A stretch of DNA of 64,000 nucleotides, from the IMG/VR virus record IMGVR_UViG_3300011008_000034, positions 64,001-128,000 of that record; one strand, 5' to 3'. This DNA comes from a virus (taxonomy: Duplodnaviria > Caudoviricetes). Position numbers and translations under genes: made by a program. Shown here one piece after another: positions 4,341 through 31,547 of the stretch. The notes beneath the pieces are model-generated. The model was not told where the DNA came from, searched no databases, and saw nothing but the letters and a program-made list of their open reading frames with translations. The stretch's first letter is position 1, and each line of letters begins with the position of its first letter.

Positions 4341-4703
4341 TTACAGTTCCTGATAAATAGTATAAAAAATATTTCTATTAATTGGTCCAAGTAATTGAGC
4401 AGCTAATGTCTGAACACGAAGATTAATGTAAATTGGCTTATTTTTATAATTGATTAATTTTTTTGGTCCTTCAAATCCAATATTTGTATCACTCACATAA
4501 TTTACTAAAGTAATTAATGCTTGTGATTGGTCTTCATTTAATTGTAATTCTTCAGTTGGCTCTGCATTTGCTTTTTGAACAAAATGAATTTGTATTGCAA
4601 TTGGTTTTGTTTTTATAATTACATCTTCATTATTAAATTGAACAATATTTCCTGAAGATATAATTTCCTTTGTTTCTGTTAATAATTGAAAATCTTTTTT
4701 CAT
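4341..4703 (-). CDS. Hypothetical protein
   Basis: 120-aa ORF with an AAGGA RBS. Confidence 0.6.
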   Translation of the reverse strand: MKKDFQLLTETKEIISSGNIVQFNNEDVIIKTKPIAIQIHFVQKANAEPTEELQLNEDQSQALITLVNYVSDTNIGFEGPKKLINYKNKPIYINLRVQTLAAQLLGPINRNIFYTIYQEL

Positions 4704-4802
4704 GATAACTTTCCTTTCGGCGTGCAGTTTTTAAGACTTATAAAATAAATCTAATTTTTCTAGAAAAAAGAGACTAAGCCCTCACATTACACGAGAGATT
4801 TT

Positions 4803-5480
4803 TTAGGTTTTTTCTAACAATTGTTCTTCATCTAAATAGTAGATTTTATTGTTTTTCACATGTAAATAATTTTGTTCAATTAAATTTTCCCATGATAACG
4901 ATGACCCCACGCCTAATTCTTTCCGGTAGTCAGATAAAAAACGAATTGCTCTTACTAAAGGCATTCCATTTGAAAAAGGCATTTCAATAATATCATTTTT
5001 TATGGTTTTTATCCAAACTCGATCTTTGCACATATTATAAATTGTTTTGTTTTGATTTGTTATTGTAACTGTAATAACATTGCTTGCATCTTCATCTATT
5101 TGTTGAAATTCGACGTAATCTAAATCCGTGCCAATCTTCTTTAAATTCTGTAATTGTCTTCCTAAACTGGAAACTATAACTACTTCTTTTTTCTTTTCAG
5201 TAATTGTTTTGATAGCTATAGAAAAATCATTATCTTGTGTTAGCAAATAATAAATATTAATATCTTCTTCGTATAACGATTTTACTATATCCGTAGTCAT
5301 AAACATATCTGCAGAATTCTTTTCAGTCAAGCAATAAATGAATTTAACGTTTTTCATTTTAGAATAAATATTACTCATGCTTACTTTTTTACCATATACG
5401 CGGTATTGTTCTGTCTGGTGTTTTTCATAAAATTTTTTTACTAATTTTTTACTGACATTTTCAGCATCTATAAATACCAT
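4803..5480 (-). CDS. NYN (PIN-like) domain putative RNase
   Basis: VFIDAENV, KNSADMFMTTD and LLTQDNDF acidic motifs. Confidence 0.8.
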   Translation of the reverse strand: MVFIDAENVSKKLVKKFYEKHQTEQYRVYGKKVSMSNIYSKMKNVKFIYCLTEKNSADMFMTTDIVKSLYEEDINIYYLLTQDNDFSIAIKTITEKKKEVVIVSSLGRQLQNLKKIGTDLDYVEFQQIDEDASNVITVTITNQNKTIYNMCKDRVWIKTIKNDIIEMPFSNGMPLVRAIRFLSDYRKELGVGSSLSWENLIEQNYLHVKNNKIYYLDEEQLLEKT

Positions 5481-5548
5481 GTTTTCATCTCCTTTCTTAA
5501 ATTTAAAAAGCGCCTAATTTATTTTAGGCGCTTTTTAATGATATGTTT

Positions 5549-6259
5549 CTATGCGATATTTTTATGTAATAAATCTCTTAATGCTCTTCCTGCTTCAGTA
5601 TTATCTCTCAACCGTTTGATTCTAACATAAATTTTGTTTGTACTTTCATGAAGGTCTCTACTAATATCATTAATATTATAACCTTGTGAAAGATAAATAA
5701 TAATTTTTCTATCCAATTCATCAACTTTCGGGAAAATGTATTGCTGGAGTGATGTAATGAATTCGCTGTCAACGATTTGTTCTTTTGCGTTTTCATCCGC
5801 AATAATATTTTCCAAAGTCATATCACCATCATTTGACATTGCATTCATTGAAACAACACCGTTCGGAGCTTTACGTTTCAGTGAATTATCACGACCACGA
5901 TACATCCGGACATGATTCCGAGCTGAATGCCAGAATAATGTATTAAAACAGCTGGACCCGCCTGGTTCATATTTTTTTGCACAATTAAGAAGAACAGTAG
6001 CTAATTCTTGCACGATATCCTCATCCTTGTAAGTATTTGCTACATATTCGATTTTGCTCTTATAATGATTATATAAGTAATTGAATGCCTCTTTACATCC
6101 AAACTTATAATCTTCTACTGCAACTTCCAATGTTGGTTTTTTAAATAAAGGTTCTTTTGCTGGTTCTGAACATCTTTTGTGAGGAACGTCTTGATAAACT
6201 TTTAATGTAGGATTATTTGACAAAGAAAACTTTTTGGGGTGGTCATCAAAATAAACCAT
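5549..6259 (-). CDS. Sigma-70 family (SigH-like) sigma factor
   Basis: AFNYLYNHY…EDIVQE…FNTLFW (region 2) and C-terminal GYNINDISRDL…IYVRIKRLR (region 4 HTH). Confidence 0.8.
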   Translation of the reverse strand: MVYFDDHPKKFSLSNNPTLKVYQDVPHKRCSEPAKEPLFKKPTLEVAVEDYKFGCKEAFNYLYNHYKSKIEYVANTYKDEDIVQELATVLLNCAKKYEPGGSSCFNTLFWHSARNHVRMYRGRDNSLKRKAPNGVVSMNAMSNDGDMTLENIIADENAKEQIVDSEFITSLQQYIFPKVDELDRKIIIYLSQGYNINDISRDLHESTNKIYVRIKRLRDNTEAGRALRDLLHKNIA

Positions 6260-8449: not shown

Positions 8450-8791
8450 TCAATTTTTTATCTCAAAGGGAATGGATTGTGTAGCTAAACATTTTTTCAC
8501 AAAAATACGAATAGCTGTTTGCGTATCTAATCCTAAATTGTCCATTAGGGAAGTAAATTTTAAGAATTCCTGAAGATTAGCAAAATTATTAGTAGGAATA
8601 TCATGTTCTACTAAGAAAACTTTATCCTCATAATTCATTTCATTAATGTAATTATCTCGTTCATCTTCATCTTCTACATGTTCACGAATATAATCTTCAA
8701 AATAATCAAAAGCTTCCTCTGCGTCAGCAAACATTTTTACTTTATTAGCAGTAATACTTTCATTAAGATTTACAATAGCATATACTCTCAT
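8450..8791 (-). CDS. Small protein with C-terminal RelB/DinJ-like antitoxin segment
   Basis: LMDNLGLDTQTAIRIFVKKCLATQSIPFEIK matches the RelB/DinJ pattern LGL…AI.IF…IPF. Confidence 0.6.
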   Translation of the reverse strand: MRVYAIVNLNESITANKVKMFADAEEAFDYFEDYIREHVEDEDERDNYINEMNYEDKVFLVEHDIPTNNFANLQEFLKFTSLMDNLGLDTQTAIRIFVKKCLATQSIPFEIKN

Positions 8792-10422
8792 TTTGCATTT
8801 CCTTTCTCAAAATTGTTTAACATTAATTGAATATTCCGTCTTCCTGCAAATTCATTAATAGATAAATTATAGGCAATATTAATTATATTTTCATTGTCAA
8901 ATTCTTGCATAAAATGATTCATTGTGGAATTAAAACAAATTCCATCAAATGTTACTCCATTCTGAAAAAATTTGAATTTCAATGCATTTTTCTTTTTGCC
9001 TAAAATTTTCTTTTCAAGAATTTCTACATTTTTAGAACAGAATATCAATTCTTTATTTCCGTTTCCAAATGGCCTTAGTAAATTTATTTTATCCATTAAA
9101 GTCCAAGATATATCTTCAAAATTTATTAAATAGTCTATGAGATATTCATCTTCAACATATTCATGTGTCTCTAGCCATTTTTTAAAATCTTCATTACACC
9201 GACGTTTAAATTCTTTCAAATCACTATTTTCTATAGATAATGCACAAGCTTCTGCATGTCCACCACCAGAAATTTTTAAATCTTTATTTTGAATAATTAC
9301 ATTAGATAAATTATATCCAGGAATAGACCGTCCTGAACCTCCAGAATGTGTTTTTCCTTTTACCATTGCAAAACAAGGTTTTTTAAATTTATCTGATATT
9401 TGATTAGCTACAATTCCTAATACACCAGCTGGAACATTTTTAAATGTCTGAATAATAACTAAATCTTCGCTTGGTTTTACTTCTTCTAATAATTTAGATT
9501 GAATTTCTTTACGTTTATCATTTAAAGAAATCATTTTTTTGACAATTTTTTCTGCTTCAAACTCATCATCACTAAGAAATAAATCTACTACCATGCTAGC
9601 GTCTTCCATACGTCCAGCTGCATTCATTAATGGTGCAATCGTAAAACCAATATCATTTTCAATAACTTTTTTTAAATTACACAATTTCAATAATGTATTT
9701 AATCCAATATTAGCAGTTTCTGTGAGATGATTTAATCCATGATAAACGAAAATTCGATTTTCATCTTGTAATGGCATAACATCCGCTAATGTCCCTATAG
9801 TAGCTAAAGCAATTAATTGAGGATTTAAATCTGGATATAACAATTTAATATCTGGAATTAATGCTCTAATGACTTTATAAGCTACCATAGCTCCACAAAT
9901 TCCATGGAAAACATTTTCATCTAAATAGGGGTCTACAACTATTTTACATGGAAGAGTTTTTTTATTATGAGGATGATGATCTGTCACAATGACATCAATT
10001 CCATTATCCATAGCATACTTAATTGATTCATGTTCTGCGATTCCTGTATCTACAGAAATAATCAAATCAATATTATCTTTAATACATTCGTCTATTTGAC
10101 GTTTTGAAATGCCATATCCATCTTTTACACGATTAGGAACACTATAACTGACATTAGGCGTTAATTGAGATAATCCTAACATCATAATAGAAACAGAAGT
10201 TATTCCATCAGAATCATAATCCCCTAATATTTTTATCTTTTCATTATCAAGTATAGCTAATTGAATTCTATCAATAGCTTTTTTCATATTTGGAAGAGAA
10301 AAAGGAGAATTAATTCTCCCCTTTTTATATAAAAACTTATTAAAGTCTTCGTCAGACATGGAAAAATATTTTTGAATAGAATGCAAAAAATCACCCTCAT
10401 ATGTATTCAAAATTTTCCACAT
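8788..10422 (-). CDS. recJ: ssDNA exonuclease RecJ
   Basis: GDYDSDG, PNRVKDGYG, VDTG, TDHH, GTLADVMPL, PLMNAAGR, GSGRS, GGHAEA, LRPFG. Start placed at MWKIL. Confidence 0.95.
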   Translation of the reverse strand: MWKILNTYEGDFLHSIQKYFSMSDEDFNKFLYKKGRINSPFSLPNMKKAIDRIQLAILDNEKIKILGDYDSDGITSVSIMMLGLSQLTPNVSYSVPNRVKDGYGISKRQIDECIKDNIDLIISVDTGIAEHESIKYAMDNGIDVIVTDHHPHNKKTLPCKIVVDPYLDENVFHGICGAMVAYKVIRALIPDIKLLYPDLNPQLIALATIGTLADVMPLQDENRIFVYHGLNHLTETANIGLNTLLKLCNLKKVIENDIGFTIAPLMNAAGRMEDASMVVDLFLSDDEFEAEKIVKKMISLNDKRKEIQSKLLEEVKPSEDLVIIQTFKNVPAGVLGIVANQISDKFKKPCFAMVKGKTHSGGSGRSIPGYNLSNVIIQNKDLKISGGGHAEACALSIENSDLKEFKRRCNEDFKKWLETHEYVEDEYLIDYLINFEDISWTLMDKINLLRPFGNGNKELIFCSKNVEILEKKILGKKKNALKFKFFQNGVTFDGICFNSTMNHFMQEFDNENIINIAYNLSINEFAGRRNIQLMLNNFEKGNAK

Positions 10423-10513
10423 GTTTACACCTCTTTTCATAAATCTTCTTCAATATCATCATAAATAATTTTATTAATATCATAATCAATTATTACTTTT
10501 TGTTTTCCATTTA
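10277..10513. repeat. Direct repeat copy A (recJ 5' end + endonuclease 3' end)
   Basis: Aligns closely with 11563-11800. Confidence 0.9.
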
Positions 10514-11498
10514 TACATAAATCATATGCTTTGTGTATATTTTCAAAAAGATTTTCTAATTTTTGTGGTTTTTTGCATTTTGTTTCAACAATTCTAATAA
10601 TTTTCCATCCATTACTATAAAGCAATTCTTCACGTTTAGATTCATTTTTAAAGAATTGTTCTTCTGATTCATTTTTCATTTTATAATATGCAAAATGTCC
10701 ACGTCCATCAACTTCAATACAGATTTTATCTTCAGGAAATGCAATATCCAATCTTTTACGTTTAAATTTATAGTTTAACTCTCCGCCAATTTTCAACCAT
10801 ATATATTCCTGTAATCTCGATGTATTAACACCTGTACCATGACTCCTATCCAAAAGACCTTGATTAATTTTTTTACGTATTTTAGGACTTTGCGAAATAT
10901 TACTTTCAACACCATAATTTTTTTGTAACGTTTCTAATTTCTTTTTCTTTATTATCTCACTTTGACAAACATTTTCAACACCCCAATGTTCCAATGTTGT
11001 TTGCGTTATGCGTTGTCTTATTTCTGGATTTTGTGAAACATTCTCAACTCCCCATCTTTCTAAATTTGTCGCTTTTACTTTATCTCTCACTTCTTGACTA
11101 CAAGTTGGGGCAATCCCTCCATAACGTTCAGTGTTTGTCTTAGCAACTTTTTCATGCCATAATTTTGTTTGAGAAATGTTTTCAACTCCGTATTTTTCAA
11201 ATATTGCTTTTTTTGTTCGCTCTCCAAGATATTTGTTAAAAGCTTTTTTGCATTCATCTGTTTGTCGACAAAAATGTTTTTCTTTTCCTTGAACGCAACC
11301 ATACGTTTTTTGATACATTGTATGACAATGATCACATATAACATCAACTTGTATAGAAGAGTATTTAGGTAAATCAAATACATTTACTTCTATATTTCTG
11401 TTTGATTCAGATAATATATATCCAAGATTTTCATAATAAGATTTATTTTTTTTATTCCATTTTGTTATATATGTTTTATCAATTATCATTAAAATCAT
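10437..11498 (-). CDS. Free-standing putative homing endonuclease (Zn motif, five 23-aa repeats, Vsr/DUF559-like nuclease)
   Basis: CDHC, repeats T(N)LE(R/K)YGVENxSQ, C-terminal LDIAFPEDKICIEVDGRGH…GWKIIRI. Confidence 0.75.
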   Translation of the reverse strand: MILMIIDKTYITKWNKKNKSYYENLGYILSESNRNIEVNVFDLPKYSSIQVDVICDHCHTMYQKTYGCVQGKEKHFCRQTDECKKAFNKYLGERTKKAIFEKYGVENISQTKLWHEKVAKTNTERYGGIAPTCSQEVRDKVKATNLERWGVENVSQNPEIRQRITQTTLEHWGVENVCQSEIIKKKKLETLQKNYGVESNISQSPKIRKKINQGLLDRSHGTGVNTSRLQEYIWLKIGGELNYKFKRKRLDIAFPEDKICIEVDGRGHFAYYKMKNESEEQFFKNESKREELLYSNGWKIIRIVETKCKKPQKLENLFENIHKAYDLCINGKQKVIIDYDINKIIYDDIEEDL

Positions 11499-11549: not shown

Positions 11550-11708
11550 TTAATATTGTATGGCTTTTTTCATGTTTGGAAGAGAAAAAGGAGAATTGAT
11601 TCTCCCCTTTTTATATAAAAACTTATCAAACTCTTCATCAGACATGGAAAAATATTTTTGAATAGAATGCAAAAAATCTCCTTCATATGTATTCAAAATT
11701 TTCCACAT
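11550..11708 (-). pseudogene. Duplicated recJ N-terminal fragment (52 aa)
   Basis: MWKILNTYEGDFLHSIQKYFSMSDEEFDKFLYKKGRINSPFSLPNMKKAIQY*, nearly identical to the RecJ N-terminus. Confidence 0.85.
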
Positions 11709-11800
11709 ATTTTCTCCTCTTTTCATAAATCTTCTTTAATATTATTATAATTAATTTTATTAACATCATAGTTAATCATTACTTTTTGTTTTCCATTTAT
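11563..11800. repeat. Direct repeat copy B
   Basis: See 10277-10513. Further eroded endonuclease 3' fragments continue to about 11860. Confidence 0.9.
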
Positions 11801-11901
11801 TATTATAAATACTATAAAGCAATTCTTTATGTTCATTTTTTATTTTATGATATGCAAAATTATATATAGTAAAAAAATTATTAAAAATTTTTAATCAAAG
11901 A

Positions 11902-11930
11902 TGTACATTTTATTACGAATATGATATAAT
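11902..11930 (+). promoter_or_regulatory. Promoter of the radical SAM operon (TGTACA-N17-TATAAT), preceded by palindrome ATTAAAAATTTTTAAT
   Basis: Read directly from the sequence. Closely resembles the region upstream of tnpB at 30161-30230. Confidence 0.65.
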
Positions 11931-11955
11931 AAAATATTAATAAGGAGGTATAACT

Positions 11956-12339
11956 GTGGTTCATAATGAAAGAAATCAACACAATATAGTAGAAAAAGAA
12001 CTTATTCTATTTCAGTCTATAGTAGACCGAAAATCGGTTGTAGAATCTACAATTAATCAAGCTATAGATAACCATGTGAAATCATATCCTAAACAACGTA
12101 AAATTTCTAGTACTGTTATTATTGTAACAAATTCTGGAGACGAAAAAGTAAATGAAGAAGCATTAAAAAAGGTTCATGATAAAATCATTACAGAACATCT
12201 TCAAGCAGTTAATCAATTAAATCATTTGAAATCATCAGGTAGTTGTAATTATAATGATATTCATTCTGTTCCACCACTATATCAAAATAAAGCAAGAGAA
12301 ATTATCGAAGAAAACAATTGGCTTATGAATAATGAATAA
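11956..12339 (+). CDS. Hypothetical protein
   Basis: AAGGAGGT RBS, GTG start. Confidence 0.6.
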   Translation: MVHNERNQHNIVEKELILFQSIVDRKSVVESTINQAIDNHVKSYPKQRKISSTVIIVTNSGDEKVNEEALKKVHDKIITEHLQAVNQLNHLKSSGSCNYNDIHSVPPLYQNKAREIIEENNWLMNNE

Positions 12340-12357
12340 CTATGGAGGTGAAAAATA

Positions 12358-13137
12358 ATGCTTACAAAAGTAGCTGAAAAACATTTTGCAAATGGTTCAG
12401 TATATGCATTAAAAACAGAAGATGGTTTTTTATTAGAAACGACTGATACATTCCTTCCTTATTATACGAAAGATGCTATTGGAAGAAAACAAAATTTTTT
12501 AGATAATAAAGATTTAGGCAGTAGAAGTGAACGTTGGATGATTGGTGTTTCTACTATGTCAGGTTGTTGTGTAGGATGTAAATTCTGTTCTACTGGTAAT
12601 ATGAAGAAATTTAGAAATTTAACTGCACAAGAAATTGTCGAACAAGTTGAATTTATTTTAAGTCTTCATAAGGAAAATCCTCTTGACAGTAAAGAATTTA
12701 AAATTAACTATACAAGGATGGGTGAACCTTTTCTTAATATAAAAAATGTAAAAGAAGCAATGTCTATCTTAAATAAATACAAACCACATCATTATATTTC
12801 AACTATTGGAATTAAAGATAGTGATTTTTCTTTTATTAAAGGTAATATTACATTACAAATTTCACTTCATTCGTTAGATAATAAACGACGTAATAACTTA
12901 ATTCCTTTTAAAAACAAAATGACTATTGAAGAATTAGGTCAAATTCGTACAAAATCAAACCTAAAAACGACTATTAATATGACATTGGTCGATAATGCTG
13001 ATTTTGATATTGATAAATTAAAAAAACACTTTGACCCCAAATACTTTTTTATTAAATTATCGCCTATTAATGAAAATGTTATTTCTAAAAAGAATCATTT
13101 AGGAAAAGGTATTGTGGAAGGAATAAATATTATTTAA
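12358..13137 (+). CDS. RlmN/Cfr-like radical SAM core lacking the N-terminal domain and the C-terminal AACGQL segment
   Basis: LET, GCCVGCKFCSTG, RNLTAQEIVEQV, RMGEPFLN, ISTIG, QISLHS…RNNLIP, LSPIN. The protein ends before the Cys355-equivalent loop. Confidence 0.88.
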   Translation: MLTKVAEKHFANGSVYALKTEDGFLLETTDTFLPYYTKDAIGRKQNFLDNKDLGSRSERWMIGVSTMSGCCVGCKFCSTGNMKKFRNLTAQEIVEQVEFILSLHKENPLDSKEFKINYTRMGEPFLNIKNVKEAMSILNKYKPHHYISTIGIKDSDFSFIKGNITLQISLHSLDNKRRNNLIPFKNKMTIEELGQIRTKSNLKTTINMTLVDNADFDIDKLKKHFDPKYFFIKLSPINENVISKKNHLGKGIVEGINII

Positions 13138-13150
13138 GGGAGAAACCAAA

Positions 13151-13438
13151 ATGGAAATTTTAACGAAAGCAAATTTATTTGGGGTACAAGTTTCTATTGA
13201 CGAAGAACGAGTTATTATTGATATGATCGAAAATTTAACGGGGAAATCTATCTATAAAAATATTTATGTTAAAAATGATAAGCTTGTTCATGAATATGAT
13301 GGTTCATATCACGGTTCATATTCTCCTGAATACGAAATAATTACGACAGACGTTAAAAAAATTAAAAAATTTCAGTTATTGAAAGAATTATTAAATGTTA
13401 TAGAAACAGAAAAGGTGGACGAAACATTATGTCAATGA
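13151..13438 (+). CDS. Hypothetical protein
   Basis: ORF with RBS; contains YHGSY. Confidence 0.6.
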   Translation: MEILTKANLFGVQVSIDEERVIIDMIENLTGKSIYKNIYVKNDKLVHEYDGSYHGSYSPEYEIITTDVKKIKKFQLLKELLNVIETEKVDETLCQ

Positions 13439-13659
13439 AAGAAAAATTTTGCAAAGAACAACTTCAAGATATACTTGATTTTTACGAATTTTGTAAAACG
13501 AAGAATAAGAAATTTCTTTATGTCAAAACGAATGAAAATAAAACTGGAGTGAACGTCATTAATCATGTAAAAGAAATGGTTAACCTTTATACTAATAAAA
13601 ACGAATTCTTAAAAGATGCCGAAAGAATTTTTAATTTAGTAAAGGATGATGAAAAATGA
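13429..13659 (+). CDS. Hypothetical protein
   Basis: Overlap-coupled ORF in the operon. Confidence 0.55.
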   Translation: MSMKEKFCKEQLQDILDFYEFCKTKNKKFLYVKTNENKTGVNVINHVKEMVNLYTNKNEFLKDAERIFNLVKDDEK

Positions 13660-14036
13660 ACAATATAAAAGAACAAATTGAATTCGTATTAGATTGGTGT
13701 GAATTTCAAGAATCAAAAGGAAAACCAGCAAGACTAGATATTATTTTATCTTCTGAAGATATTGATGAAGAAGTAAAAAATATTTTTAATTGTATTGGTT
13801 ACTTAAATAAACATTTATCAAAAGATGAATTAATAAACATTATTAATAAAGCGGAAAATGCCGAAAGCGAATATCAAAGTCCAATGAAGTGTTGTATTAA
13901 AAGAAAGATGGTTGGAGATGGCTGTATGAGCAGTACTCGTTACGTTGAATATTGTGTAGCAGCAGAAAATTGTACAAATGAAGAATGTTTATATGCTACT
14001 CGAAAAAAGAAAAGAGAACATTCTTCTTTTTGTTAA
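13656..14036 (+). CDS. Hypothetical protein with Cys-rich C-terminus
   Basis: ATGA overlap; KCC…GC…YC…C…C. Confidence 0.55.
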   Translation: MNNIKEQIEFVLDWCEFQESKGKPARLDIILSSEDIDEEVKNIFNCIGYLNKHLSKDELINIINKAENAESEYQSPMKCCIKRKMVGDGCMSSTRYVEYCVAAENCTNEECLYATRKKKREHSSFC

Positions 14037-14047
14037 AGGATTATACA

Positions 14048-14909
14048 ATGAAAATTTTCGATTATGATATTCAAACAAAACAATATTATTGTCAATTAAA
14101 TAATCATCCATTAAAAAAAATTCCTTCTTCTACTATAAATGTTTATGTACGATTACAAAATGTTTGTAATGCAAAATGTAAATTCTGCGAATTTAAAGGC
14201 AATTATATCCCTTTTAATGAAAAAGGATTTAGAGAAGCATTAGAAGAAATTCGTAGTAAAGTAAAAATTAATCGTTTATCATTTACAGGAGGAGAACCTA
14301 GGAGGAGAACCTACTTTAGATTTTGAACTATTTAAAAGATGTTTAAAATTTGTTCAAGATTTTGATAGTGATATTTTTACTGTTGTCAATACGAATGGAT
14401 TATACTTGAATGAATTAGAAGAATTAGGATTAAATAGTATTGCTTTATCAAGACATCATTATAATCAAGATAAAAACGATGAAATATTCGGTATAAAGAC
14501 ATCTAATATTAAAAATATAAAGAATTTACATTTATCATGCAACTTAATAAAAGGTTATATTGATAATGAAGAAGAAATCTTAAAATATCTTGATTGGTGT
14601 GATATGAATGGATTTACAGATATTGGTTTTGTTGCGCTAATGAAAGTAAACGATTATTGTAAAGAACATTTTATTTCACAAGATATATTTAATTTCAATG
14701 GTAAGCGATTCTTAAAAGTCAAAGAATATCATAATAAAGATATTCATAATGAACTTTGTTGTAAGTGTTGTAACTATCTTTATGGTGGTGATAATTTAGT
14801 CAATATTTATAGCAGGCATTACATAAAGTCTGATAATAATAATGCATTGGTTTATGATTTAAATAAACTAAAAGATGGATTCAATGGAAAAATCATTAAG
14901 GAGTGGTAA
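14048..14909 (+). pseudogene. Second radical SAM enzyme, frameshifted by a 13-bp tandem duplication
   Basis: CNAKCKFC and FTGGEP. AGGAGGAGAACCT occurs at 14287-14299 and 14300-14312. Removing one copy gives GGEPTLDFELF…VVNTNGLYLNELEELG, joining ORF 14406-14909. Confidence 0.85.
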
Positions 14910-14911
14910 AG

Positions 14912-15040
14912 ATGGAAGAAATTAAAAAACAGTTAGAAGACAATGGATATGATTATGCGGTAGCAATCGCAACGCAAGCAGAAATTGAAAATGGAGCAGC
15001 TTGTGGTCAGCTTGCAATTATTGTCGAAAACGAAGAATAA
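14912..15040 (+). CDS. 42-aa peptide equivalent to the RlmN C-terminal methyl-carrier segment (AACGQL)
   Basis: AAGGAG RBS at 14898; MEEIKKQLEDNGYDYAVAIATQAEIENGAACGQLAIIVENEE*. Below the ORF track length cut-off. Confidence 0.85.
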   Translation: MEEIKKQLEDNGYDYAVAIATQAEIENGAACGQLAIIVENEE

Positions 15041-15053
15041 GTTTTAAATAAGT

Positions 15054-15094
15054 AAAAAGCTCATTATCCTTAAAATTGGGATAATGAGCTTTTT
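15054..15094. terminator. Bidirectional intrinsic terminator closing the radical SAM operon
   Basis: aaaaagctcattatcc…ggataatgagcttttt. Confidence 0.8.
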
Positions 15095-15095
15095 A

Positions 15096-15875
15096 TTATG
15101 CTATTGTTTTAGTATTATGAACAATGAACTCTTTCAAGTTTCTCGGAAGTTCTTTATAAATATCTTTTTTATATTTCTCCCAACCATTCAAGGTATTTTC
15201 ATATCCAATATGTTCGCATACATAAGAATCAAAATTACAAAAATGACTTTTTCCATCTTTAATAAATTTCATTGTAATTTTTTTATTCGGATTTTCTTCA
15301 GCGAGACTCATTAGTTTTGTAAGAATCTTTTCATCGTCATGAATAAGGTTAACATTAATTGCAATTTCGTCTATACTAGTAGCGAACTGTCCATGAGAAA
15401 TATCATTAAAAGTATGAAGATAATTTGGAGTATAAATGGTCAAGTCATTAAAATGACCATCATCATATCCATCGCATGTCCAAGTTGTGCCGGTTACAAA
15501 AATATTATATTTTTTATGCCATGCAAAAAGTTGAATTTCATGTCGTTTTCTATTATATGCTTCAAATTGAAATTCTTTTTCATAAGTTTCAAATCCAAAT
15601 TTTTCAAGGACTTTTTTCGCTTCTTCAAGATTAATATCTGGATAGAAATCATCTGCTTCCACTCGTTCGCCAAGAGTTACAATGTAATATTTTTCAGCAG
15701 TTTTCTTTACCTTAGCAATTTTAAAGAAGCCTCCAGAAGGAAGTACTTTATCAGAAATGATTACTTTCCCATAAGCATCATATCCAACGAAAGACTTTCT
15801 ATTTCTCTTGCTATCATAAGAATCCGCGAAATAATATACATCGTTTTCTTTTACTTCGTTTTTAAATTTGTACAT
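15096..15875 (-). CDS. Hypothetical protein
   Basis: Start moved to MYKFK because a consensus promoter (15943-15971) lies inside the annotated 5' part and an AAGGAG RBS precedes 15875. Confidence 0.65.
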   Translation of the reverse strand: MYKFKNEVKENDVYYFADSYDSKRNRKSFVGYDAYGKVIISDKVLPSGGFFKIAKVKKTAEKYYIVTLGERVEADDFYPDINLEEAKKVLEKFGFETYEKEFQFEAYNRKRHEIQLFAWHKKYNIFVTGTTWTCDGYDDGHFNDLTIYTPNYLHTFNDISHGQFATSIDEIAINVNLIHDDEKILTKLMSLAEENPNKKITMKFIKDGKSHFCNFDSYVCEHIGYENTLNGWEKYKKDIYKELPRNLKEFIVHNTKTIA

Positions 15876-16888: not shown

Positions 16889-18094
16889 CTAAAAATCTTC
16901 CTCTTTATCACCGTAAATAATTTTATAAGTATTATAATTAATTATGACTTTATTTATGTCTGTCGTCTTTAAAATAGATTTAGCATAATCAATTCTAATT
17001 TTTATATCAGATAAAATTTTTTCATAATCACGACATGTAGTCTTTGTGTCAATAACACGAATAATCTTCCATCCTAAATTAAAGAAAAATTGTTCTCTAT
17101 CATATTCATATTGCAAAAACTCTTCATGAGTCATATTCTTAAATTTTATACAATATTTTTCATGTCCTCCACCATCATATTCTACATATATCATTTCTTC
17201 AGGAAAAGAAATATCTTGAGCTTTTTTTATAACTTTATAATTCAATTTTCCACCAATTTGAAGCCAAATAAATTCTTGCTGTTGTGAAGTAAAAACTCCT
17301 GTCCCATGACTTTGTTCAATAAACGTTTGATGAGCTTTATTTCGTAATTTTTCATTTTGTAATGGATGTTCTACTCCGTAACGATCTAAATTTGTTAACT
17401 TAATTTTTTCTTTTATGGGTTCTGCAGCAAATACATTTTCAACTCCCCATTTTTTCATATTTGTTTCCGCAATTTTTGCTTGTACCTCTGGATCTTGCAT
17501 CACTTGTTCTACACCACGTTTTTCCAAATTAGTTTGTTTAATCTTTTTTTTGCCATATTCCGATGCCCAAACATTTTTAGCTCCATATAATTCAAGATTA
17601 GTTTTTGCAATTTTTTCTTGTATCTTTGGAACTTGAAATGTAGATGGATAACCATACAAATCCATACACGTTTGAGCCATTTTTGCTTTTACTTCTGGGG
17701 ATTGCGATGCACATTCATATCCATACTTATTTAAGTTTGTTTGCTTTATCTTTGCTTTACCATAATCAGATGCCCAAACATTTTCAGCTCCATATATTCG
17801 CATATTTGTAGCTTTTCTTAAATCATCAGAATATTTCTTATGTGCAGCTTTACAAGCATCAGTACTATGACAAAAATGCATATCATGAACTATAGCTGCT
17901 TGAAACATTTTTTGAAAAATAACATCATCACAATAATCGCATTTTACGTCAATTTTCATACATGAATTAGGATGTATATCAAATACATTTACATCTACAA
18001 AATCTCCATATGCTAAATTTTGAAAACCATGTTGTTTGTAATAGTTTATATTGTGATATGTTATTTTCACTAAATAATTTTTATCTACTATCAT
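16889..18094 (-). CDS. Free-standing putative homing endonuclease with seven 23-aa repeats
   Basis: Paralog of 10437-11498: CDYC, repeats, DISFPEEMIYVEYDGGGH…GWKIIRV. Confidence 0.75.
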   Translation of the reverse strand: MIVDKNYLVKITYHNINYYKQHGFQNLAYGDFVDVNVFDIHPNSCMKIDVKCDYCDDVIFQKMFQAAIVHDMHFCHSTDACKAAHKKYSDDLRKATNMRIYGAENVWASDYGKAKIKQTNLNKYGYECASQSPEVKAKMAQTCMDLYGYPSTFQVPKIQEKIAKTNLELYGAKNVWASEYGKKKIKQTNLEKRGVEQVMQDPEVQAKIAETNMKKWGVENVFAAEPIKEKIKLTNLDRYGVEHPLQNEKLRNKAHQTFIEQSHGTGVFTSQQQEFIWLQIGGKLNYKVIKKAQDISFPEEMIYVEYDGGGHEKYCIKFKNMTHEEFLQYEYDREQFFFNLGWKIIRVIDTKTTCRDYEKILSDIKIRIDYAKSILKTTDINKVIINYNTYKIIYGDKEEDF

Positions 18095-21968: not shown

Positions 21969-23495
21969 CTAAACATATACTAAAGATTTTCGTTGCACGA
22001 CAATACAATCCCGTGCGGGAAAATTCCTTTGTTCTTGCCCATAAGCCCTGTAATACTGATTATTAGTCAGGCTGCCTGTCATGGTATACCTTTGTTTTTG
22101 GAAAAGGAATGTCGCACCAGCCAGAATTCGTTCTGTATTATTGTATCTACGAAAAGATTTCACAACTTGGACTTTCGACAATTCCATGCGAGCCTGTCGG
22201 CGTCCAACTTTTTCACAAAGTTGCTTATACCAATCGCTTAGTGCAGGAACCTTCTCGTCTTGTTCGAAACGGGGTTTTCGATTTTTGGCTACGACCTCGA
22301 ATATAGGTTTTTCTGTTTCTTTTTTGCCTTTTTTAACCTTTTTTGTACCGACACACATCTTGTAAGTTCGTTCGCACTGAGCTTTGATGTTAGCCCTGTC
22401 ATGGTTTCTGAACTGCATAATCTCAAAGGGTTGGCTGCCGTCATACCGTAAAGGGAGGCTTCCTCTTAAAGCTGCTATGCAGGCAGCGTCAGCATTATGT
22501 TCCTTGACAATATTATGCTCCTCACGGAAATGTGCGGTTTCAAAGCCACGGCAGATATGCAGATTGTTTCCGAACATTGTCAAAAGTTCGTCATAGATAA
22601 ACGGCATGGCAATATTGACGATGGACGCTCCCGCATATTTTTTCTTCTTTCCAATACTGTCGAGCAATGCTCGATTTGTATGGACTTTATTATGACATTC
22701 GTTGCACAGTCCCACGATGTTTTCGGGCGTGTCGCTGCCGCCCTCGTGCCGTGGAACGATATGGTGGTGGTGCTCGATATTACCACCACACAACACGCAG
22801 CGACCGTCCTGCAAATAGTCGATATAAGCATTGATATTGGAAAAGCCCTTCATTCGCCCGTTCTGGAAGTCCATGCCCCGAACAGAGTCATCTTCCAGCA
22901 ACATGAACGCAAACTTGTTGTACTCCAAAGTCCAGTGTGTCACGGACAAAATCCTGCAAATCTGTTTCACCATATTGATATGCGTTTGGACGCACTGTCT
23001 TGCGGTCGGGGTTATCCAGTTTGCGGGACGTTTTCGGTGGCAAAATTTTGCCTCCGTGTTGGTGATGTCCTTCACTTGGAGGACACCGTTCTCGTATTTC
23101 GGGAGCTTCCGTCCTTCAGGAAAGTCTGTTATTGTGCCGTTTTTCTTTGCACGACGCTTCCTGCGAAGACGCTCGCCACGGCGAGAAGCCTGCCGATGGG
23201 CCTTGCGGTTTTTCATCAGCTTTGGAATCCCTTTGTTTCTGGTGGCAACGTGGGCCTCATAAACAACCTCTCCTTTCTGATTGACCACAGCCTCGCCGAT
23301 GTTGGTTCTACCGGGGTCAGTGCCACCGTAAAGGGGCTGGGTATAATTATCGGACTCGTACAAAAGCTGTATGACGAACGGCTTCGTTGAAACAGCTTTT
23401 GCCTGCCCAAAGTTAAGCAGCCTCCGTACATGACCGAACCTTTTGGTTGGCATGAGCGGGTTGCCGTTCTTGTTCAAAACATAAACTACATACAT
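21969..23495 (-). CDS. iscB: IscB RNA-guided endonuclease
   Basis: PLMP, GTDPG (RuvC-I), Arg-rich bridge helix, LEYNKF (RuvC-II), HNH (CVLC…HHIVPR…N…CHNKVH), HNADAACIA (RuvC-III). Confidence 0.95.
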   Translation of the reverse strand: MYVVYVLNKNGNPLMPTKRFGHVRRLLNFGQAKAVSTKPFVIQLLYESDNYTQPLYGGTDPGRTNIGEAVVNQKGEVVYEAHVATRNKGIPKLMKNRKAHRQASRRGERLRRKRRAKKNGTITDFPEGRKLPKYENGVLQVKDITNTEAKFCHRKRPANWITPTARQCVQTHINMVKQICRILSVTHWTLEYNKFAFMLLEDDSVRGMDFQNGRMKGFSNINAYIDYLQDGRCVLCGGNIEHHHHIVPRHEGGSDTPENIVGLCNECHNKVHTNRALLDSIGKKKKYAGASIVNIAMPFIYDELLTMFGNNLHICRGFETAHFREEHNIVKEHNADAACIAALRGSLPLRYDGSQPFEIMQFRNHDRANIKAQCERTYKMCVGTKKVKKGKKETEKPIFEVVAKNRKPRFEQDEKVPALSDWYKQLCEKVGRRQARMELSKVQVVKSFRRYNNTERILAGATFLFQKQRYTMTGSLTNNQYYRAYGQEQRNFPARDCIVVQRKSLVYV

Positions 23496-23509
23496 TCCAA
23501 AAATCTCCT

Positions 23510-23740
23510 TTAGAGATAAATCGTCGCAGTTGCGACGTAAGATTGCCATAGACTCGGTGCAGCCTTAGAGTTTCGGGAGGCTTGGCATTACCCCCGGTTC
23601 TGGAGTTGCATCGCCCAACGGATATTTCTGTCGGAATCCCGTGCTTTCGTTATCACGGGTGTCTCTGCTCAACAACGCCCACTCGGGACTTGTTTCCAAG
23701 CCCCCGCTTCAGATGCGAAGCATTAAGCGGGGTTGTTGAC
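23510..23740 (-). ncRNA. omegaRNA (HEARO-like) scaffold of IscB
   Basis: About 230 nt, GC-rich, multi-hairpin region directly upstream of iscB, starting GTCAACAACCCC…GGGGCTTG. The 3' boundary is approximate. Confidence 0.85.
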
Positions 23741-30236: not shown

Positions 30237-31547
30237 ATGAAAAAGAGCACTGAAATAAAAAATTTTAGAGTAAAACAATTCATTGTAGAAGAAAGTCATC
30301 CATATTTTCCATTTCTTTTAATACAATTACATTATTCTAAGAACCTTTATAATGCTACTTTGTATGAATTAAGGCAAAGATTTTTTAAAAAAGAAGCATT
30401 TCCTAAGAATTTAGATAAAGTAATGAAAGTAAAAGAATCTAACCGTAGTGATAAACTTGGTTATGATTATTATAATATGGCTACATGCCAGTCAGCACAG
30501 CAAACCATAACGAAAGCTCATAGAAGCATGATTTATTTCCAAAGGTCTTTAAGAAAATATGAAAAAGACCCTAGAAATTATACGGGTAAGCCTAAGATTC
30601 CTAAGTATAAAAGAGATAAATATTATATTGTAACTCTCACAAACCAAAATTGTAAGGTCAAAGGCAATATAGTACATTTTCCAAGAACATATGGAAACTT
30701 TACTTTAGACATAAGTGATTGTTTTACTAACAATGAATATGACTTCAAATCCTTAAGTGAAGTAAGGTATTACTTAAAGAAAAATGTTATAGTTATGGAA
30801 GTAATTTATCAAGTAAAAGCTAAATATCATTATTCTTTAAGGAAAGATAGATTATGTGGTATAGACTTAGGTGTAGCTATTTTTGCCGCTTGTTCTTTTA
30901 ATTTCAATAAGAATCCTATTATTATTGATAGTTCTTATGTAAAGTCTGTGAATCAATTATATAATAAAAAGATAGCTAAATATCAAAGTTTAGCTAAAAA
31001 ATGTAATGATTTATATACCACAAAAAGATTAAATGCTTTATGGTCAAAAAGACATAGAAAAATAAAAGATTATATGCATAAAGCGAGTACATTATTAGTT
31101 AAAACATGTGTAGAAAATAGAGTATCTAAAATAATTATAGGAGAGAATAAGAATTGGAAACAAAAAAATAAGAAAAAACAGAACTTTACTTATATATCTT
31201 TTTCTATGTTTAAATCAATGGTAGAGTACAAGGCTAAATTATATGGAATTAAAGTTATATTTGTTCCTGAAATGTATACATCTGGTACTTCTTTCTTAGA
31301 CAAGGAAACTCCTCAGAAAAAGTTTTATAATAAAAAACGTAGGGTAACCAGAGGAATTTTTTATAGTAACGAAAAAATAGGTATACATAGTGATGTAAAT
31401 GCCGGATATCAGATGATAAAGAAATATGAACTGAAAGAAAATCAGAAAAGAAAAAGGCAAACAAAAAAGAGCTTAATCTCTTGCTTTAATAAAACCTTTA
31501 ATTGGAAAAAAATAGCAAGTAATATCGAACGAGTATATGTTATGTAA
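30237..31547 (+). CDS. tnpB: TnpB-family RNA-guided nuclease
   Basis: SKNLYN, GIDLG, YMHKAS, IIIGENKNWKQ, EMYTSGTSFLD, RGIF, SDVNAG. Confidence 0.9.
   Translation: MKKSTEIKNFRVKQFIVEESHPYFPFLLIQLHYSKNLYNATLYELRQRFFKKEAFPKNLDKVMKVKESNRSDKLGYDYYNMATCQSAQQTITKAHRSMIYFQRSLRKYEKDPRNYTGKPKIPKYKRDKYYIVTLTNQNCKVKGNIVHFPRTYGNFTLDISDCFTNNEYDFKSLSEVRYYLKKNVIVMEVIYQVKAKYHYSLRKDRLCGIDLGVAIFAACSFNFNKNPIIIDSSYVKSVNQLYNKKIAKYQSLAKKCNDLYTTKRLNALWSKRHRKIKDYMHKASTLLVKTCVENRVSKIIIGENKNWKQKNKKKQNFTYISFSMFKSMVEYKAKLYGIKVIFVPEMYTSGTSFLDKETPQKKFYNKKRRVTRGIFYSNEKIGIHSDVNAGYQMIKKYELKENQKRKRQTKKSLISCFNKTFNWKKIASNIERVYVM

Follow-up and report, generated by a model that had tools for sequence, protein, structure and literature searches.

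The stretch analysed here, called the window below, comprises 64,000 nucleotides (positions 64,001 to 128,000) of the IMG/VR virus record IMGVR_UViG_3300011008_000034. It carries a gene for a radical S-adenosylmethionine (SAM) enzyme of the RlmN/Cfr type (the core) together with a separate gene for a 42-aa protein (the peptide) that bears the putative methyl-carrier cysteine. The record is a virus contig of 177,647 bp with 28% G+C which, since CheckV puts its completeness at 36%, represents a fragment of a large phage. A crAss-like origin was considered, as the best isolate match is a Kehishuvirus, but it is not established for a 177-kb fragment of such completeness. Both genes lie in a small plus-strand unit (11956-15097) that is set between minus-strand replication genes, with a RecJ-like gene at 8788-10440. 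The unit contains, in order, an open reading frame (ORF) of 127 aa (ORF127), the core, three small ORFs, a second radical SAM gene (rSAM2), the 42-aa ORF and a terminator hairpin, and every gene in it has a Shine-Dalgarno (SD)-like site and a TAA stop. The core (259 aa; 12358-13137) and the peptide (14912-15040) are present as reported in a preliminary description made from the letters of this DNA, each with its own SD-like site and stop. For the peptide, ORF prediction chose a GTG start at 14903; the relatives start at the ATG (14912). The hairpin at 15051-15097, with a 20-bp stem between A and T runs (free energy -26.6 kcal/mol, z -8.8), is usable from both strands and comes after the peptide gene, which is the final gene ahead of the terminator, as had been stated.

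The core was compared with protein families and solved structures. In Pfam it matched Radical_SAM alone (36.4 bits, cut-off 29.5); in NCBIfam the RlmN model TIGR00048 came first (E 9e-24) and the Cfr models next. The only solved structures that it matched were those of RlmN (6fz6, 4pl1, 5hr6, 3rf9) and Cfr (9p0p), at E ~1e-10. The core keeps every motif common to RlmN-like enzymes, the cluster motif CxxxCxxC being C70/C74/C77. Its match to the RlmN model begins at model position 102 (chain residues 97-117), with 57 residues preceding the barrel, and stops at about position 265 of 355, short of the C-terminal segment. These best matches and this end point agree with the earlier claim of a barrel that has the RlmN/Cfr motifs and ends before the C-terminal segment. 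Since the match begins at about RlmN residue 100, the core is without the N-terminal RNA-binding domain. When aligned to RlmN chains, Gly63 of the core occupies the position of RlmN Cys118, the resolving cysteine, and the codons from Gly63 to C70-x3-C74-x2-C77 span 12544-12588 (+). The core has four cysteines, namely the cluster ligands C70, C74 and C77 and a lineage-specific Cys71. The CGQ motif is absent from it, and the methyl-carrier loop is found instead on the separate 42-aa ORF.

The peptide consists of a helix, a strand and a Cys loop in which Cys31 (codon 15002-15004) sits in AACGQLA. Neither the peptide nor the small ORFs of the unit had a match in Pfam or NCBIfam. A search of the PDB sequences with a peptide profile brought up no RlmN chain (E up to 10), and the comparison of the peptide with one canonical relative aligned only an 8-residue motif. 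The homology was clear only using profiles of C-terminal segments. With hhalign, residues 1-36 of a profile of 45 peptides aligned with the last 43 residues of the single-chain relatives (97.4%, E 9e-12 with the canonical class; 98.2%, E 6e-14 with the single-chain class that lacks Cys118), the homology to the fused C-terminal segment spanning 34-35 residues. Because the alignment covers residues 1-36, the whole helix-strand-loop is matched and not merely the 7-mer, and because it falls on the C-termini of single-chain relatives the peptide corresponds to the missing C-terminal segment of the enzyme. The likeness to the RlmN end that had been proposed thus stands at the level of profiles. The stand-alone peptides, 37-71 aa long, fall into 364 clusters; 13 of their positions are invariant, including AACGQ, which is identical to the loop of the canonical relatives. 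The peptide ORF of Vibrio phage D479 (L003 3803-4084) contains two complete helix-strand-AACGQ modules in tandem.

As had been suggested in the preliminary description, the core and the peptide were searched against phage genomes by tblastn, and the split and the CGQ motif are conserved across phages with variable spacer genes. Separate core and peptide genes occur in Kehishuvirus 'tikkala', Moorella phage MTATph1 and Vibrio phage D479, in the Pectobacterium phages Arno18, Arno162 and Wc4 (the last by tblastn only) and in Yersinia phage P778; the split is therefore not confined to one group, being present in FelixO1-like phages too. In these isolates 0, 1 or 2 genes stand between the two, and the end point of the core is constant. 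The best 120 of 2180 core homologues measure 258-275 aa; none of them contains CGQ, and 119 have Gly at the Cys118 position. Among the 80 IMG/VR loci at 70-74% identity, 79 had enough flank to be judged, and the peptide lay downstream on the same strand in 78 of these, within ~20 nt of the core in 38 and ~1.1-2.8 kb off in the remainder. Where the two genes are adjacent the gap is 2-20 nt, and their reading-frame relation varies (same in Moorella, different in Kehishuvirus and L012), so that a fusion by recoding is unlikely. The ratio of nonsynonymous to synonymous substitution rates (dN/dS) was 0.02-0.15 across comparisons; against a 96% relative it was 0.046 for the core and 0.020 for the peptide. 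From these rates and the gene order, the core and peptide genes are shown to be kept together, under purifying selection, in many phage lineages. The pair of the window belongs to a split family that we define by a core of 258-295 aa with a residue other than Cys (mostly Gly) at the Cys118 position and no CGQ, accompanied by a separate 37-98 aa protein with A-[AS]-C-G-[QN]. By homology, this two-piece design is common to hundreds to thousands of phage sequences.

To place the peptide on the core, both were co-folded with SAM and a 4Fe-4S cluster, alongside three controls. The interface score ipSAE was 0.80, 0.80 and 0.82, and the best control reached 0.08; the mark applied is attained by 58 out of 80 complexes of solved structure and 2 out of 110 mismatched pairs. 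Agreement between the runs was at least 56% of contacts, with a predicted local distance difference (pLDDT) of at least 69 for the partner. The contacts of lowest expected error pair peptide residues 13-17 with core residues 230-234; peptide residues 23-41 contact the core at 119-121 and, next to the third cysteine of the cluster motif, at 76-79. The predicted strand pairing supports binding of the peptide to the core, and the Cys-loop region is modelled at the cluster loop. Note that the pass may stem from likeness to solved single-chain RlmN. The preliminary description had also held that the Cys loop acts in trans, as a dissociable subunit, methyl shuttle or co-substrate. The supply of the loop as a separate protein is upheld by the absence of fused forms among the 120 closest cores and by the co-fold; what the loop does in trans is a matter of inference and is weighed below.

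Where single-chain forms stand relative to the split pairs was examined in a tree of 94 full-length representatives, built by a quick method with Shimodaira-Hasegawa-like approximate likelihood ratio test (SH-aLRT) support; for the deep-branching representatives the gene context comes mostly from short contigs. The tree has three groups. The canonical one (35 rows, support 98) has both Cys118 and the CGQ at the C-terminus, and some of its members are fused to a NUDIX or an HD/dGTPase domain; the second is a single-chain clade without Cys118 (25 representatives, support 95); and the third, of 31 rows without the C-terminal CGQ (support 86), contains the core of the window. Inside this third group, P0244 (315 aa) begins with the peptide module, to which the core is joined. 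P0266 (695 aa; L117/L118 6001-8088), with 46 members on many contigs, joins an N-terminal peptide module, the core and a further radical SAM domain. To judge from their architecture, the P0244 and P0266 fusions show that the module can work tethered. Another split-class core, P0242 (601 aa, on a 114-kb contig), carries a LAGLIDADG intein at the third cysteine of CxxxCxxC, and this insertion in the cluster motif suggests that the core is important for the phage. Twelve rows of the third group form a subclade of which both examined members (L104 7992-8813, on a Candidatus Saccharibacteria metagenome-assembled genome, and L094 2132-2971, between pyruvate kinase and GreA genes) keep the helix and the strand in cis without the Cys loop. 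Both have Gly at the Cys118 position, and no CGQ peptide was found within 8 kb of either.

The 1.8 kb between core and peptide is a nested module that is, on gene order, specific to this lineage, the adjacent layout being more widespread. It holds a lineage-specific 95-aa ORF without a family (13151-13438), a 76-aa ORF (13429-13659) whose N-terminal region has a weak likeness to the small ORFs that relatives (L011) carry in this place, a 126-aa protein with a Cys-rich tail ending in Cys (13656-14036), which is the partner of rSAM2, and rSAM2 itself (14048-14909; 282 aa if intact), all on the plus strand. The layout of three small ORFs and a second radical SAM gene had been described correctly; what had been missed is that in this record the frame of rSAM2 is shifted by a tandem duplication of 13 bp (AGGAGGAGAACCT twice, 14287-14312, +), which shows in comparison with contig L097. 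This contig, from the European Nucleotide Archive (ENA), is identical over 11900-15100 (3201 bp) except for a 13-bp gap, and there rSAM2 is intact at 282 aa and the peptide gene begins 2 nt later. A Joint Genome Institute (JGI) contig ends 57 nt before the duplication, and the truncated product is found only on the record that contains the window. The part of rSAM2 downstream of the duplication has a dN/dS of 0.023 against the 96% relative. The duplication may be a very recent variant or an assembly artefact. ORF127 (11956-12339, +), the first gene of the unit, follows an SD-like GGAGG, has no family and is conserved only in close relatives, its sole homologue being in L007 (80% identity) apart from the identical contigs L097 and L098.

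In close relatives the core is likewise followed by small ORFs, rSAM2 and the peptide, and in L007, L010 and L011 an additional variable gene, which the window lacks, precedes the peptide. The rSAM2 family comprises 414 proteins, each a 90%-identity cluster, that match at E <=1e-5. rSAM2 is weakly like MoaA, viperin and YydG, with YydG as the best solved match; YydG is a peptide epimerase, and MoaA and viperin act on nucleoside triphosphates. A small protein ending in Cys is encoded directly upstream of rSAM2 in the window and in L007, L011, L024, L073, L100 and L101, and one gene away in L103; in L010 the tail of the counterpart is rich in Cys without having Cys as its last residue. The arrangement core, Cys-tailed protein, rSAM2, peptide recurs in L101, a 263-kb phage contig whose rSAM2 pair lies at 4662-5888. 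In L103 the bracket formed by core and peptide extends to 5.6 kb and includes a methyltransferase, NT5C, Tpt1 and a further radical SAM gene as well, and in L100 (4722-5864) the rSAM2 pair occurs with no core within 5 kb. In 38 IMG/VR loci the gap is filled by a different radical SAM gene and a 148-aa methyltransferase-like gene. The three types of second radical SAM protein (that of the window, that of L015 and the P0266 domain) have no relationship closer than the superfamily and offer no shared clue to function. The genes that separate the core from the peptide form a nested, probably cooperating module that is not essential to the pair, and rSAM2 and the Cys-tailed protein may make up a scaffold-peptide module of their own or one resembling those for RiPPs (peptides synthesized ribosomally and modified post-translationally).

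The surroundings of the unit contain several mobile-looking genes. A 241-nt direct repeat (10274-10514 and 11560-11800; 92% identical) flanks a DUF7487 nuclease-like gene at 10437-11498, and this repeat is a copy of the 5' end of the RecJ-like gene plus the 3' end of the DUF7487 gene. Another DUF7487 gene is found at 16889-18094, and therefore the radical SAM unit lies between two mobile-looking genes. Further along, an RRXRR/HNH endonuclease gene (21969-23549, -) occupies a 44% G+C island of the 28% G+C genome and is probably a recently acquired mobile gene. A TnpB-like gene (30237-31547, +), with OrfB_IS605 and a Cas12f-like TNB domain, lies within the replication region of the phage.

The loop cysteine of RlmN and Cfr is methylated by SAM; a hydrogen of this methyl group is then removed by a 5'-deoxyadenosyl radical, which leaves a methylene radical that adds to the adenine, and a second cysteine resolves the adduct (PMC3702613, PMC5130265). 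By analogy, the pair of the window would work as follows. The peptide would dock by strand pairing of its residues 13-17 with core residues 230-234, which would bring the Cys loop to the cluster loop 76-79 and the GEP motif 119-121. SAM would methylate Cys31; a second SAM would then give a 5'-deoxyadenosyl radical that takes one hydrogen atom away from the S-methyl group, and the methylene radical so formed would add to the substrate at an sp2 carbon; this substrate would most likely be an adenine, either in a nucleotide or in RNA. The last step must differ from that of RlmN, because the resolving cysteine is replaced by Gly63 and no conserved replacement is visible. With moderate confidence, we favour a reading of the locus as coding for an RlmN/Cfr-type enzyme of two subunits, in which the peptide is a bound catalytic subunit and the resolving step differs from that of RlmN. 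Two observations make a bound subunit preferable to a consumed one: permuted fusions in a single chain occur in nature, and the whole single-chain clade also manages without Cys118.

Several points weigh against this two-subunit view. The core scores 84 bits with TIGR00048, far below the family threshold of 290, and only 57-60 bits with the Cfr models, whose cut-offs are 468-550 (58-60 bits with TIGR04432 and NF000424, cut-offs 530-550). In the split-class cores we found no class-specific conserved residue able to replace Cys118. Since the C118A mutant of RlmN stalls as an adduct and the core has Gly63 at this position, catalytic turnover would need a further resolving step. The barrel can work without the peptide cysteine, because the Saccharibacteria subclade has no Cys loop. 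The tandem modules of the D479 peptide fit a consumed co-substrate better than a subunit. Finally, the methylation of Cys31 and the nature of the substrate are argued from analogy with RlmN and Cfr.

The alternative that survives best, although we consider it unlikely, is that the peptide is a consumed co-substrate, so that a Cys31-CH2-substrate bond persists and tags an RNA, a DNA base or a nucleotide, or is processed as an adduct by another enzyme. This idea is in keeping with the Gly that 119 of the 120 closest cores have in place of Cys118 and with the behaviour of RlmN C118A, in which the product is absent and a covalent enzyme-tRNA adduct is trapped (PMC5130265). A separate peptide gene would allow production in excess, the D479 peptide has two modules in tandem, and second radical SAM enzymes of three unrelated types, nested within or fused to the pair, could process the adduct. 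On the other hand, the recurrent fusions P0266 (46 members) and P0244 would then be single-turnover enzymes, the fused clade of 25 representatives without Cys118 indicates that another resolving route probably exists, and the predicted peptide interface is extensive, as in a structural subunit. A specific and slightly more doubtful form of this idea is that the pair is a peptide-tagging machine, in which the product, or an intermediate handed to rSAM2, would be the methylene bridge that links Cys31 to a carbon of an adenine in RNA or a nucleotide. To our knowledge, enzymatic conjugation of a peptide to a nucleobase has not been described previously.

It is improbable that the Cys has a role other than methyl transfer, as a hydrogen-atom donor, a cluster ligand or the site of a thiyl radical, with no methyl transferred at all. 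The distance of the core from the RlmN and Cfr family cut-offs, the Saccharibacteria subclade without a Cys loop and the absent resolving cysteine would all be compatible with it; the invariant AACGQ of the peptides, which matches the canonical loop, and the retention of every RlmN-like motif in the core oppose it. Still less probable, in our opinion, is that the peptide is the end substrate, a RiPP-like precursor whose Cys would be modified to yield a bioactive peptide. This would account for a small separate ORF beside a radical SAM enzyme, and the nested rSAM2, with a peptide epimerase as its best solved match and a Cys-tailed small protein as its partner, would suit such a system. Yet all along its length the peptide is a homologue of a structural part of the enzyme fold, and it is conserved from the first to the last residue, without a division into leader and core, and no conserved protease or exporter was found in the gene neighbourhoods examined. 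Finally, that the split reflects decay or an artefact (a gene broken by the 1.8-kb cassette, or parts rejoined by recoding or splicing) is scarcely credible, even with mobile genes common in the region (DUF7487 nuclease-like, HNH, TnpB) and rSAM2 frameshifted in this record, since the core stop site is constant in distant phages, the peptide starts at a codon of its own, fused forms are absent among the 120 closest cores, separate peptide genes make up 364 clusters, purifying selection is strong on both parts (dN/dS 0.02-0.15), the frame relation of adjacent genes is not constant, intein motifs are absent at the junction, and the adjacent layout of 2-20 nt leaves no room for an intron; the fused close relatives and neutral evolution that decay would predict were not what we observed.

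As to the substrate of the two-subunit enzyme, the neighbours in other phages include RtcB, RNA ligases, Tpt1, NT5C, NAMPT, SIR2, FolD and thymidylate synthase. Among the single-chain proteins, those fused to isochorismatase (P0315, P0324, P0353) lack Cys118 and the NUDIX/HD fusions (P0307, P0339) keep it; these fusions hint at nucleotide substrates in the wider group. Taken together, the neighbours, the NUDIX, HD and isochorismatase fusions and the likeness of the nested radical SAM protein hint at a nucleotide or RNA target, without separating the two. No tRNA genes and no RNA ligase gene were found in the 177-kb record, and for this reason a link to phage tRNA or RNA repair is unsupported here. 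The isoelectric point (pI) of the core (9.3) was also considered as a clue and does not favour one substrate over another.

RlmN and Cfr serve as the textbook example of methylation via a methyl-cysteine and a cross-link between protein and substrate, and Cfr is a clinically important resistance enzyme. A methyl-carrying loop on a separate protein, combined with an absent resolving cysteine, raises the question of how the cross-link is resolved without Cys118, and the split pair offers a ready two-component system in which each step could be studied or trapped. The split design also points to an undescribed RNA or nucleotide modification made by very different phages during infection. Our searches of open-access papers and bioRxiv turned up neither a split RlmN or Cfr nor an RlmN-like enzyme of phages without Cys118.

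Among known systems, the pair is to be compared with RlmN, the C2-methyl synthase of A2503 in 23S rRNA and A37 in tRNA (TIGR00048; PDB 3RF9/3RFA, 4PL1, 5HR6/5HR7, 6FZ6), and with Cfr, the C8-methyltransferase of 23S rRNA A2503 (TIGR04432, NF000424; PDB 9P0P). With RlmN it shares the motifs CxxxCxxC, EI..Q, MGEP..N, ST.G, SLH and R..L.P, and the AACGQL loop that follows a helix and a strand. With Cfr it shares the fold of the class A radical SAM methylases and a methyl-cysteine loop near the C-terminus (PMC3702613). It differs from both in the same three features, as the Cys loop is on a separate 42-aa protein, Cys118 is replaced by Gly, and the N-terminal RNA-binding domain is missing. Another close system is the undescribed single-chain clade without Cys118 (for example P0317), which keeps the CGQ loop and has Ile, Met, Val, Thr or Asn at the Cys118 position; its C-terminal segment aligns with the peptide at 98%, and unlike the split pair it carries the Cys loop in cis.

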